Below are positions 22,471 to 25,167 of a stretch of DNA of 64,000 bases, one piece after another. Source of the stretch: Vampirovibrio chlorellavorus (lineage in GTDB: Bacteria > Cyanobacteriota > Vampirovibrionia > Vampirovibrionales > Vampirovibrionaceae); the NCBI RefSeq assembly GCF_003149375.1, contig NZ_QFWH01000001.1, positions 419,593 to 483,592 of the forward strand. Reading direction: 5' to 3'. Position numbers and translations under genes: made by a program. Under the pieces are notes generated by a model. It ran no database searches and had not been told where the DNA came from. It saw nothing but the letters and a program-made list of their open reading frames with translations. How positions within the stretch are numbered: the stretch's first letter is position 1; each line of letters begins with the position of its first letter.

Positions 22471-25167
22471 ATGTTTTTCAAAAAAAATAAGTCGAATCCT
22501 CCTCCGGTTGAGACCAACCACCCATCGAATCCACTGAGGGGCGCCATGGGGCAGGCCAGCCTGTTTGCGCCAGCCCTTAATCCCAATGCGCAGCCCATTG
22601 ACTTTGGCTTTGGGAGAACGCCACAGCCTTCTGGCTATGCGTCTCAGGAGCCTTCTTTTCAGGAGCCCGCTTTGGTGCCTGAAGCCATCCCTGTTGAGCA
22701 AATCCCGGAAGACAACGGCTGGATGTCACAATATGAAGCAGCGAGCCCCAGTTTTGACTCTCAGCAAGCCATGCCGGAGTTGCTAAGCGCTGCGGAACTG
22801 TCTGCGGCTTCCCCCTTGGACATTGTGACACCCACGCTGGCCCCCCCCGCGGGTTCGGGTGCCGGGCCGTCTTATCTGGAAGAGACTTTTGAGAATTACT
22901 CTCCTGAAAATTACACGCCTGAGACTTCCATACCCGCCCTGCCAGCAGACCCGTTCGTCCCTTCCGTGGGGAATGCAGCATGGGAAGAATCCGCCGGGCC
23001 GCAGGCTGATGACTGGAATAGCGCGTTTGAACCAACCTCCTGGCCTACTGAATTGATCTCTGGCATTCCGGATGCGGCTTCCTCTCCTCCTCCTGTAGCA
23101 CCCCCGCCTGCCGCACAGAACTCTCAGCTGGATTGGGCCAAGCCTTCCGAGCCCACTGTGCCCTCATCGCTGGAAACGGGCTTTGGGGACTTGATGCCCT
23201 GGGAGCAATTGCCGGAGCCTCTGGGTAACCCGGGGCCTGCATCGCCAGAGGCCCTGTGGGCGCAATTTGATTCGGGCGCTGCCCTGCCGGGCCAGCAAGT
23301 GCCGATGGGGTCTGGTGCGTTTTTGGACTCTGTCCACGAGAAACTATACCCGGAAGACCCGTTTACCCCGGGCTATGATGAATTGGCTCAGGGGCAGCAG
23401 GCTTTTGAAGAGGCCGCCCAGTTCCTTTTCCCGGATACAATGGGCGCTTCGCTGGACTGGCAGCCGGAAACTTCACTGTCTGATGGTTTTGATCCCTTTT
23501 CGGGACAGGTATTGTCTCCTGAGGGTTCGGCTTTCACGGAACCCCCTCTGGAGTTGGGCCCCAGTATCCAGAGTGATGGCTCCGAAGTAAGCGATATGAC
23601 CACTTATGCGGACGCGCTTCTGCAGTCCACTGCGCCATCGTTCCCATCAGCCTTTTCCCCTGACAACCCGGAGCAAGCGCTTTCATCGGTCGATGAGTCC
23701 CAACGGGTCACTGATCCGCTACAGGCCTTTGACCCATTTGCCATTCCGCCACCGGACAGTTCGGAGGCGGAGGGTGTAGCCAGCTTCGACTTCCCGCTGG
23801 ACAGCTCGCTTACTGTGCCACCGGTCCCGTCTTTTGATCCCCTGGGACCAGACGCACTGGATTTTGACCCATTCAGCGTGCCCCATACAGAAGACGCTGC
23901 CGAGCCTTTGGTTTCCGGGTCCAATGCGTTTGACCGTTCAGACAGTGCTTTTGATTTCGCTAACCCCGAGTTGGCATTGCCCTCATCCCCGTCGCTGGAG
24001 GCCTGGGAGGTCAGCCCGCTGCCGTCTGAGGAGGTGCAAGAGCCGTCACTGGCGGATCCGACAGCGCTGGCCTTTGATCCCTTCAGTCCGCTACCAGCGG
24101 CGTCCGCTTATTGGGACGGCCCGGGAGAGTCCTCGGATTTTCCGACCCTTTCTGCGGATGAGGCCGGGATTTTGTGGCCGGGAGAGCCCACGGCTCACGA
24201 GGCAATCGCTGAGCCTGTATTGGATCGGCCATTGTCTGTAGCGGATGACAGTCTGACATTCCAGTCTTTGGAATCGGCAGACGCCGATTTGGATGAGTTG
24301 GAGACGGCTTTCGCCGCTGATTCACCCCAGTCTTCCGATGTGGGCTTTCCGGAGAGCCCGGTTTTACCGGATCTCAGCGATCAGGATTTTTATGCCACCG
24401 ACTTTACCTTGAATGCGCTGGGGGAGCTGGTTCCTCTGGAGCCTGAAGTAGCGGGCGCTTCTTTGTCAGTGGCCCCCGCAGAATCCGGGATGCTCTCCGC
24501 ATTTGAGGCTGCCGAAGGGACAGCAGACTTTTGGGTACCGCAAGCAGAGGCGCAGGGTGTTTTCGGTGACGCCGCTGTCGTTGCGGAGCCACAGGTTCCA
24601 GAGCCTTTCCCGCAGCTTTCAGAGCCCCTGCGTCTGGAAGCGCTGGACGCGGATTCGCCTTTCCAGAAGGTGTCGCCGCCTCCGATTCCCGGTGCGAGCC
24701 TGTCTGCCGCCTCATCATCTGAAGAACGGCTGCCCCATAATGGACATTTAACGGATGAGCAGTCGCCAGCACAAGCCTTTAGCGGGCCATTGGAGGCTCA
24801 GTGGCATGACACCTCTTCGGAAGTGGTCACTTCCGCTGTCCAGCCCTCTCAGGTGGAACCCCCTCGGGAATTTTCACTGTCCGATATCCAGATTTTGGCA
24901 GTCTGTCCACTGTTTGGGGACAGACGCCTGCTGGTGGTGAGCAGTAACGGGATATACGCCTTGATGGGCCAAGTAGGCTTGCAGCAACCGCAAGTGGCCG
25001 TATTGAAGCTGTTTGACCATAATCCCTTGGCGTATCAAAATACGTTTACGGCGGTGGCCGAGGCTCATGCGGACAGTCAGGGCATGTTCCTGACTCAGGC
25101 TGGGACTTGGCGTGGCATCATATCCACATTTCAGGATAAAATTACATTGCACACGGATCTGGGTTAG
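22471..25167 (+). CDS. Large acidic, Pro/Ser/Ala/Glu/Asp/Phe-rich low-complexity protein (898 aa). It has 6 DPF and 2 FDF motifs and a C-terminal structured domain of about 110 aa
   Basis: Codon usage is consistent across the ORF. The motifs are ADPFVPS, EDPFTPG, GFDPFSG, AFDPFAIP, LDFDPFSV, LAFDPFSP, SAFDFANPE and ASFDFPLD. The C-terminus LAVCPLFGDRRLLVVSSNGIYALMGQ... is non-repetitive. Confidence 0.7.
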   Translation: MFFKKNKSNPPPVETNHPSNPLRGAMGQASLFAPALNPNAQPIDFGFGRTPQPSGYASQEPSFQEPALVPEAIPVEQIPEDNGWMSQYEAASPSFDSQQAMPELLSAAELSAASPLDIVTPTLAPPAGSGAGPSYLEETFENYSPENYTPETSIPALPADPFVPSVGNAAWEESAGPQADDWNSAFEPTSWPTELISGIPDAASSPPPVAPPPAAQNSQLDWAKPSEPTVPSSLETGFGDLMPWEQLPEPLGNPGPASPEALWAQFDSGAALPGQQVPMGSGAFLDSVHEKLYPEDPFTPGYDELAQGQQAFEEAAQFLFPDTMGASLDWQPETSLSDGFDPFSGQVLSPEGSAFTEPPLELGPSIQSDGSEVSDMTTYADALLQSTAPSFPSAFSPDNPEQALSSVDESQRVTDPLQAFDPFAIPPPDSSEAEGVASFDFPLDSSLTVPPVPSFDPLGPDALDFDPFSVPHTEDAAEPLVSGSNAFDRSDSAFDFANPELALPSSPSLEAWEVSPLPSEEVQEPSLADPTALAFDPFSPLPAASAYWDGPGESSDFPTLSADEAGILWPGEPTAHEAIAEPVLDRPLSVADDSLTFQSLESADADLDELETAFAADSPQSSDVGFPESPVLPDLSDQDFYATDFTLNALGELVPLEPEVAGASLSVAPAESGMLSAFEAAEGTADFWVPQAEAQGVFGDAAVVAEPQVPEPFPQLSEPLRLEALDADSPFQKVSPPPIPGASLSAASSSEERLPHNGHLTDEQSPAQAFSGPLEAQWHDTSSEVVTSAVQPSQVEPPREFSLSDIQILAVCPLFGDRRLLVVSSNGIYALMGQVGLQQPQVAVLKLFDHNPLAYQNTFTAVAEAHADSQGMFLTQAGTWRGIISTFQDKITLHTDLG

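Follow-up and report, generated by a model that had tools for sequence, protein, structure and literature searches.

A fast-evolving acidic protein with reiterated DPF motifs in Vampirovibrio chlorellavorus: a possible docking scaffold encoded beside a predicted ATP-grasp ligase

The DNA analyzed here, referred to as the window, is a stretch of 64,000 nucleotides (nt) from Vampirovibrio chlorellavorus (contig NZ_QFWH01000001.1, positions 419,593 to 483,592), and its positions 22471-25167 on the forward strand hold a gene, from an ATG start through the stop codon, that encodes an acidic protein of 898 amino acids (aa). We propose, with a probability of about 0.45, that this protein is a cytoplasmic scaffold that docks its partners multivalently through short motifs, the partners including the products of two co-conserved genes or the protein's own C-terminal beta domain. 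At the same level of confidence, it may be the founding example of an undescribed hub family restricted to the Vampirovibrionales/Melainabacteria. The protein consists of a short basic-aromatic N-terminal peptide, a strongly acidic, Pro-rich and probably unstructured chain of ~750 aa and a compact C-terminal domain predicted to have eight strands.

The tripeptide DPF occurs at residues 160, 296, 341, 421, 466 and 536. The original prediction had counted these six copies against fewer than one expected, and our statistics agree with it: 0.50 copies are expected, and none of 20,000 shuffles of the 898-aa protein reached six. No other tripeptide of the protein is as enriched as DPF (Poisson 1.4e-5), and FDPF is present in four copies versus 0.03 expected. 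The dipeptides DP and PF show no enrichment in the protein, and the enrichment is therefore specific to the DPF tripeptide. FDF had been put forward as a second recurrent motif and did not withstand the analysis, since its two copies (residues 439 and 494) are only marginally enriched (P=0.019) and neither is kept even in the closest orthologs.

Only one of the six copies is ancestral. This copy (residues 296-298; 23356-23364, forward strand, as are all features of this gene) forms part of YPEDPF and lies inside a conserved central block; DPF is present at this site in 14 of the 16 full-length homologs, the other two having DPL or DLF, and Y293, P294 and D296 are invariant. The other copies are confined to the closest clade (P0002-P0004). 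Within it, copy 3 (GFDPFS, residues 341-343; 23491-23499), copy 5 (DFDPFS, residues 466-468; 23866-23874) and copy 6 (AFDPFS, residues 536-538; 24076-24084) are invariant in DPF, copy 4 (AFDPFA, residues 421-423; 23731-23739) is kept in three of the four close-clade sequences, and copy 1 (ADPF, residues 160-162; 22948-22956) is kept in the closest ortholog only. Three of the five copies outside the islands are thus invariant in the close clade, whereas of tripeptide windows drawn at random from these spacers only 8.8% are (P=0.006). Conservation of [AG]FDPF in orthologs, a check that the original prediction had called for, holds for the FDPF copies among close relatives, but not for the family as a whole, in which only YPxDPF (residues 293-298) keeps its position. 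As a separate observation on these spacers of the window protein, no residue type is better conserved than Trp, 75% of whose positions are invariant in the close clade.

Reiteration of DPF recurs in distant members of the family. When the ancestral copy is excluded, 68 members together contain 72 extra DPF copies versus 24.8 expected. Arrays with different flanks are found in P0038 (12 copies, as DPFA/DPFG), P0037 (6, DPFA), P0048 (5, SDPF), P0036 (4, DDPF) and P0051 (3, HDPFAEP), and the context pooled across the family is [F/A]-D-P-F-[A/S/T/G]. When tripeptides are ranked by reiteration within proteins, DPF is near the top, with 53 extra copies versus 4.3 expected and with at least three copies in 11 proteins. 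Beside DPF, P0038 and P0037 carry other reiterated motifs, namely HPYAEP (six or more copies) and P-W-E-Q/A-W-E-A-S-P repeats. The recurrence of arrays, together with the three invariant copies of the close clade, upholds the view of DPF as a reiterated short linear motif. The original prediction had named orthologs without a conserved DPF as evidence against itself; on this point the outcome is divided, since the positions are lost in distant orthologs, but the family-wide excess supports the motif.

These data also bear on a simpler account, in which DPF has no function, being a by-product of an F/D/P-rich composition and small duplications, and the protein is a generic acidic spacer, an entropic brush or a polyanion. 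As a polyanion it could, for instance, buffer cations, or it could partner or mimic the helix-turn-helix (HTH) protein encoded downstream. We regard this account as unlikely. The copy number of DPF, which ranges from 0 to 12 per member with a median of 1, is in keeping with it, and other acid-aromatic tripeptides (DFG, DDF, DFS, AFE, SFE and WEQ) are likewise among the most reiterated. Some arrays are plainly tandem repeats, such as the five 25-aa units of P0038, and the spacers evolve under a ratio of nonsynonymous to synonymous substitution rates (dN/dS) of 0.38. However, composition yields 0.5 copies and no shuffle attains six, DP and PF are not enriched, and in the close clade DPF is better conserved than random tripeptide windows. 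At the DNA level, copies 4, 5 and 6 have 18 nt of motif-coding sequence in common with dissimilar flanks (family D1), and the gene has no long internal repeats, only two 15-nt doublets and this 18-nt stretch. The copies are therefore not remnants of recent long duplications, and the arrays of different members differ in their flanks.

There are 16 full-length homologs, of 779-1217 aa, and a profile of the C-terminal 112 aa retrieved 82 clusters among 1.84 billion representatives. The domain is located at the extreme C-terminus in all 82, in host proteins of 133-2463 aa, and the members have in common that a basic-aromatic N-terminus and a long acidic stretch precede it. The named sources are Vampirovibrio, Vampirovibrionales, 'Candidatus Melainabacteria' and metagenome-assembled genomes filed under cyanobacterial families, and none of the members has a Pfam domain or a functional name. 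In the alignment of the 16 homologs, conserved islands, among them the N-terminal peptide (residues 1-8) and the C-terminal domain (residues ~800-898), account for 21% of the residues, and the rest averages 15% identity to 12 distant homologs.

About ten very constrained motif islands other than DPF are embedded in the acidic chain. The first, SLFAPALNP...PIDFGFGR (residues 29-49; 22555-22617), contains invariant S30, F32, A33 and P34, with D44, F45 and G46 nearly so. LEETFENY (residues 136-143; 22876-22899) has a mean identity of 0.69 to the distant homologs. The central block, PGQQVP..GAFLDSVHEKLYPEDPF..GQQAFEEAAQFLFPDTMGASLDW (residues 273-330; 23287-23460), spans ~60 aa and holds the family-wide DPF; its invariant residues are D286, Y293, P294, D296, A311, F312, A315, A316, L319, F320, P321, T323 and W330. 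It has no Pfam match, and a PDB profile search gave only chance matches (E>0.6). Two further islands were delimited in the homolog alignment, PLELGPSIQS (residues 359-368; 23545-23574) and DQDFYATDFTLNALGE (residues 637-652; 24379-24426).

Selection on the gene is sharply partitioned along these lines. With a 74%-identical ortholog (L017) as the reference, dN/dS is 0.29 for the whole gene, 0.009 for the motif islands, 0.014 for the C-terminal domain and, as mentioned above, 0.38 for the spacers; the neighboring ligase and HTH genes have values of 0.10 and 0.036. At the level of sequence comparison, such a partition is the signature of a real, expressed protein with short linear motifs set in fast-evolving spacers. 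The possibility that the gene is a pseudogene remnant was rejected on account of this purifying selection, with dN/dS at 0.01 in the conserved parts. Between isolates that share 85-97% identity in the flanking genes, the protein is only 51-58% identical, which places its gene, as judged from the alignments, among the fastest-evolving of the region. Two genomes labelled V. chlorellavorus (L004 and L005) differ from the window by 3-15% in the flanking proteins and by 42-49% in the acidic protein.

The start of the gene at 22471, described as clean in the original prediction, is right. The 898-aa product is 100% identical to the V. chlorellavorus hypothetical protein P0001 (873 aa), whose public annotation begins at MGQASLF, 25 codons downstream of the ATG (window 22471-22545). 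The deposited start is probably wrong, because the upstream MFFKKNK is conserved across the family, being kept in nearly all homologs. A ribosome-binding site, AAGGA, lies 14 nt 5' of the ATG at 22471. The N-terminal basic-aromatic peptide MFFKKNKS (residues 1-8; 22471-22494) has a mean identity of 0.79 to 12 distant homologs, and very distant members have the variants MFFKKKK, MFFKRKK, MFGKNK and MSWLFNLFKKK. The isoelectric point (pI) of the first 50 aa is 10.3, versus about 4 for the remainder.

The bulk of the protein is acidic and rich in Pro (P 13.4%, A 12.2%, S 11.6%, E+D 15.4%, K+R 2.1%), with 138 carboxylate side chains and a net charge of -119. The architecture proposed at the outset was borne out, with a compact domain at the C-terminal end of a long acidic, Pro-rich chain. 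It has no transmembrane segment, the highest 19-aa Kyte-Doolittle hydropathy being only 1.32, inside the C-terminal domain. Residues 1-799 contain one Pro per ~7 residues and no Pro-free stretch longer than 31 aa. Among the homologs, this region is 674-1112 aa long and its alignment is rich in insertions and deletions. From the Pro density, the indel-rich alignment, the length variation and the 15% identity outside the islands, we infer that residues 1-799 are largely unstructured. Pfam and NCBIfam scans of the whole protein and of its C-terminal 115 aa retrieved nothing beyond one sub-threshold match to FliO (E=0.086).

The C-terminal domain (residues ~800-898; 24868-25164) is predicted to be all-beta. 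An AlphaFold2 (AF2) model built from 13 sequences has a mean predicted local distance difference test score (pLDDT) of 84, about 90 in the core (residues ~806-898), and a predicted template modeling score (pTM) of 0.75, in agreement with the claim that a real, non-repetitive domain terminates the protein. The model contains eight strands and no helix of four or more residues. Foldseek gave no significant match for it, with best E-values of 0.13 in the PDB and 0.056 in BFVD, the weak matches being beta-propeller blades, and a PDB sequence profile search gave only chance matches (E>0.6). The suggestion of a roadblock/LC7-like fold is refuted because the model is all-beta without helices; there was also no Pfam hit at E<=0.1 and no roadblock structure among the Foldseek PDB matches. 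An internal duplication of two four-stranded halves was considered and rejected (hhalign probability 0.25%). We therefore treat this region as a putative new all-beta domain, whose modeled fold has no PDB match.

The strongest functional clue for the acidic protein is its gene context. In 18 of the 19 loci examined, its gene lies between a divergently transcribed ATP-grasp ligase gene and a co-directional gene for an HTH/zinc-ribbon protein. This three-gene module is kept in L013, L014, L015 and L019, where all other neighbors differ; the L013 member of the acidic family is 2463 aa long, and in L015 the C-terminal domain is barely recognizable.

The divergent gene (20816-22288, reverse strand) encodes a 490-aa protein, and its counterparts in the other loci are ~480-515 aa long, with 50% identity even in the most distant loci. 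The AF2 model of this protein is confident (pLDDT 88, pTM 0.89). Foldseek matched it to human glutathione synthetase (E=1.4e-15, probability 1.00), to 3n6x, a putative glutathionylspermidine synthase (8e-13), and to E. coli GspS (3.5e-9); the 41 matches at E<=0.001 comprise glutathione, homoglutathione and glutathionylspermidine synthetases and two related ATP-grasp/ligase entries. The fold of the whole chain resembles this group with TM-scores of 0.58-0.62 at a sequence identity of 12-15%. By eye, IRPDLL...CEIDAVPGGLGF and LVLKPSGFS in the ligase resemble the human-enzyme motifs RsDY..vEiNt..SFGG and vlKPqrEGGG. The protein matched no Pfam family even at E=10, including GSH_synth_ATP, GSP_synth and CP_ATPgrasp, and gave no NCBIfam hit and no PDB sequence hit; all of the 7,845 database hits of its family are unnamed. 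Because the confident fold matches eukaryote-type glutathione synthetase and GspS, we assign the product, on the strength of its model, as a circularly permuted ATP-grasp carboxylate-amine ligase of a branch that Pfam does not cover.

The gene immediately downstream of the acidic protein gene, on the same strand (25205-25666, with a likely start at ATG 25214), encodes a 153-aa XRE-type HTH protein with a CxxC...CxxC zinc ribbon; the length is 146-177 aa across loci. HTH_31, HTH_3 and HTH_25 matched all six members tested. Four Cys residues are invariant, and identity across distant loci is 42-84%. The tail ..RLTDD is found in most members and is absent in L013. The protein does not appear to be a RodZ, since HTH_31 and HTH_3 match better than HTH_25 and a zinc ribbon takes the place of the transmembrane segment; likewise, Pfam gave no hit to DUF4115, the C-terminal domain of RodZ, in the C-terminal domain of the acidic protein.

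This context raises the possibility, which we consider rather improbable, that the acidic protein is the substrate or carrier of a protein-modification system. The ligase would then couple an amine, such as an amino acid, a polyamine or a peptide, covalently to carboxylates of the acidic protein. These could be its C-terminus or its Asp/Glu side chains, with the invariant Asp of YPxDPF and the further DPF copies as possible sites. As another option, the target would be the zinc-ribbon protein, at its acidic C-terminus (..RLTDD). The motifs would be sites of enzyme recognition or modification and not docking sites of a scaffold, in parallel with RimK-S6, TTL/TTLL-tubulin and LysX-LysW. The predicted fold is close to glutathione synthetase and glutathionylspermidine synthase, the many invariant charged residues of the ligase suggest an active enzyme, its gene strictly adjoins that of the acidic protein across deep divergence, the acidic protein offers 138 carboxylate side chains, and the Asp of the ancestral DPF is invariant. 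In addition, one of the six HTH/zinc-ribbon members tested weakly matches the LysW zinc-ribbon model (Zn_ribbon_LysW, E=0.007), but this match is single. Other features disagree with such a system. RimK, LysX and TTL belong to other branches of the superfamily, and the structures closest to the window ligase act on small molecules; distant members do not keep the C-terminal residues; and the ligase, with a pI of 5.6, is acidic too, which disfavors the binding of a polyanion. With 7,845 family hits and one homolog lacking the neighbors, the ligase may simply make a small metabolite.

A still more speculative and distinctly improbable extension would join all three genes into a new protein-based system, in which the ligase covalently modifies the acidic protein, the invariant Asp of YPxDPF and the reiterated DPF copies serving as recognition or acceptor sites, the modified protein forms a tunable, multivalent, membrane-proximal matrix (a condensate or brush), and the HTH/zinc-ribbon protein reads this matrix or is sequestered by it. 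If true, a ligase-modified scaffold would be a bacterial counterpart of tubulin-tail glutamylation or of LysW-type carrier chemistry.

At several loci, fliJ-fliK-flgF and a GH38 gene come next after the ligase gene. This link between the ligase and flagellar genes is absent in the most distant loci and broken in the window. In the window (31480-36306, forward strand), as in L001, L009-L012 and L018, a large gene of the GH38 alpha-mannosidase family invariably comes after fliJ, a fliK-like gene (Flg_hook) and a flgF/G-like rod gene; it is an unusual yet conserved companion of these flagellar genes.

The proximity of the module to fliJ-fliK-flgF in several loci is one of the points that recommend a different reading, in which the acidic protein is a secreted effector that mimics eukaryotic endocytic adaptors, is delivered into Chlorella by a type IV secretion system (T4SS) or flagellar export and engages AP-2 appendages through DPF in the manner of Eps15 or epsin. 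V. chlorellavorus is an epibiotic predator of Chlorella and is predicted to inject effectors via a T4SS (PMC4451040). DPF arrays are a hallmark of Eps15-type proteins, the DPF copy number varies among lineages, and the protein evolves fast (51-58% identity versus 85-97% in the flanks), as might suit an effector. Nevertheless, we consider this reading very unlikely. No signal peptide was found in the acidic protein, nor a basic C-terminal signal of the T4SS type, the C-terminus being a folded, slightly acidic domain; the gene is chromosomal, lies among housekeeping genes and is locked to genes for a ligase of cytoplasmic type and an HTH protein. Moreover, the most constrained parts are not the DPF arrays, many members have only 0-2 DPF copies, and the ancestral DPF belongs to a longer conserved stretch.

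We return to the docking scaffold. Here, partner proteins would dock multivalently onto the conserved islands and the DPF copies, with extra DPF copies raising the valency, and the C-terminal domain would provide self-association or localization. Through its N-terminal FF-KK-x-K patch, the chain may be tethered to the anionic inner membrane. The acidic protein would work with the divergently encoded ATP-grasp ligase and the co-transcribed XRE-HTH/zinc-ribbon protein, and these two proteins, or the beta domain of the acidic protein itself, would be the prime candidates for the reader of the motifs.

Several observations weigh against this scaffold. In many family members the ancestral copy is the only DPF, and P0010 and P0013 lack the motif altogether, so that DPF multivalency cannot be the core function of the family; because the copy number ranges from 0 to 12, it is a lineage-variable add-on. 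The charge-hydropathy plot is borderline for disorder (H 0.462 versus a boundary of 0.465), because the chain is unusually rich in F, L and A. The spacing of the aromatic residues, of the kind discussed as 'stickers and spacers', is not significantly regular (coefficient of variation 0.79 versus 0.93 in shuffles, P=0.09). The role of MFFKKNK as a membrane anchor, which it may have, comes from an analogy with FtsY-type N-termini, and selection on how the mRNA folds around the start codon could instead account for the AT-only codons of its F, K and N. Gene adjacency indicates a functional link and not physical binding, and the single exception among the 19 loci, a ligase homolog (L016, 45% identical), is found without the module neighbors, on a contig of only 4.9 kb. 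Beyond the anatomy, the selection, the DPF arrays and the module, the scaffold function is something that we infer. The multivalent scaffold of the original prediction nevertheless remains the best reading; its reiterated DPF was substantiated, but no homology to HubP, FimV or PopZ, which it had cited as examples, was found.

The 182-bp region (22289-22470) between the acidic protein gene and the divergent ligase gene also holds conserved elements. A perfect TATAAT -10 box (22416-22421) lies about 50 nt 5' of the start and recurs at a comparable position in nearly all loci, including the distant L012, L013, L015 and L018; promoter-like matches were counted five times versus 1.3 expected. A hairpin in the 5' untranslated region, GAGGGG-ATAATG-CCCTCC (22434-22451), directly precedes the AAGGA ribosome-binding site. 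Its stem is kept and its loop varies in the intergenic regions of L017, L004, L005 and L003, and it may be an element that acts on translation or mRNA stability.

Other features of the window were recorded in passing. At 19101-19211 (forward strand), the prfB gene for release factor 2 (RF2) carries the classical programmed +1 frameshift site, CTT TGA C, at 19203-19209; frame 0 reads ...LDAARGFL-stop and the main open reading frame (ORF) continues in +1, which is why RF2 appears from 19186 in the mechanical ORF list. Two tandem, slightly overlapping paralogous genes for WYL-WCX regulators of 370 and 341 aa (16530-18609, forward strand) are also conserved in L003, L004, L005 and L007. A complete Tad/Flp-type pilus locus (47537-54913, forward strand) encodes RcpC/CpaB, a secretin, a protein with a receiver domain and a ParA/MinD-like ATPase (TadZ-like), a TadA-type ATPase and two TadB/C-type membrane proteins. 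On the reverse strand, 14359-15339 encode a 326-aa protein, conserved in L003, whose N-terminal third is of low complexity and rich in Pro, His and Gln; it has a weak, sub-threshold match to the mitochondrial fission family MTP18 (E=0.0098).

Scaffolds that bind multivalently through short motifs are familiar from eukaryotes, and for Proteobacteria a few disordered hubs, PopZ and HubP, have been described. Our literature search on bacterial DPF-array proteins, on this family and on Melainabacteria with ATP-grasp enzymes retrieved nothing relevant, and as far as it shows, no bacterial protein has been described with an array of a defined tripeptide such as DPF. The sharply partitioned selection, the repeated, separate expansion of DPF, the putative new all-beta domain and the two co-conserved partners make a clean, testable case. 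Vampirovibrionia are the closest non-photosynthetic relatives of cyanobacteria, and the motif reader or the ligase substrate, once identified, would define a new cellular system in them. Such a system could also shed light on a predator that causes algal cultures to crash.

The predicted ligase invites comparison with RimK-S6, LysX-LysW and TTL/TTLL-tubulin, since an ATP-grasp ligase gene is tightly linked here to genes for a very acidic polypeptide and for a zinc-ribbon protein, and LysW is a zinc-ribbon protein with an acidic tail. However, the folds nearest to that of the window ligase are those of eukaryote-type glutathione synthetase and of glutathionylspermidine synthase, not those of the RimK/LysX branch. 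The ligase shares the predicted whole-chain fold of the former two enzymes, but is only 12-15% identical to them and falls outside Pfam GSH_synth_ATP and GSP_synth.

The N-terminus can be compared with that of FtsY. In E. coli, the A-domain of FtsY has an aromatic-polybasic patch (..KKRGFFSWL..; MSFFKKLK.. in B. subtilis) followed by an acidic unstructured region, and the patch is a membrane-targeting sequence. By analogy only, the acidic protein also has an aromatic-polybasic N-terminus followed by a strongly acidic chain. It differs from FtsY in lacking the NG GTPase domain and in its much longer chain, and a helix cannot extend past residue 8 because of the PPP at residues 10-12.

Among bacterial hubs, HubP/FimV and PopZ are likewise large, acidic, Pro/Glu-rich low-complexity proteins with a small conserved terminal domain. 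V. chlorellavorus has genes for a polar flagellum (PMC4451040), and the module is often found next to flagellar genes, which adds to this likeness. Nevertheless, Pfam and NCBIfam scans found no sequence relationship of the acidic protein to HubP, FimV or PopZ. It has no LysM domain (Pfam), no hydrophobic segment and no FimV C-terminal motif (NCBIfam), and the helical C-terminal domain of PopZ (PopZ/DUF2497) gave no Pfam hit, the AF2 model of the C-terminus having eight strands.

Finally, Eps15/epsin-type proteins are a documented example of multivalent networks of DPF and the domains that bind it. The acidic protein resembles them in its long unstructured region with many DPF copies, here followed by small residues after the Phe, in its variable valency and in the additional folded domain; the presence of multiple DPF copies in an unstructured region, characteristic of Eps15/epsin, is evident in the six copies versus 0.5 expected and in the arrays of other members. 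It differs in being bacterial, apparently cytoplasmic and far more acidic; Pfam found no EH, ENTH/ANTH or ubiquitin-interacting motif (UIM) domains in it, there is no homology to Eps15/epsin, and bacteria are not known to have AP-2. By analogy, the acidic protein, while a member of none of these systems, most resembles the Eps15-type DPF arrays and the bacterial acidic hubs in its possible mode of action.

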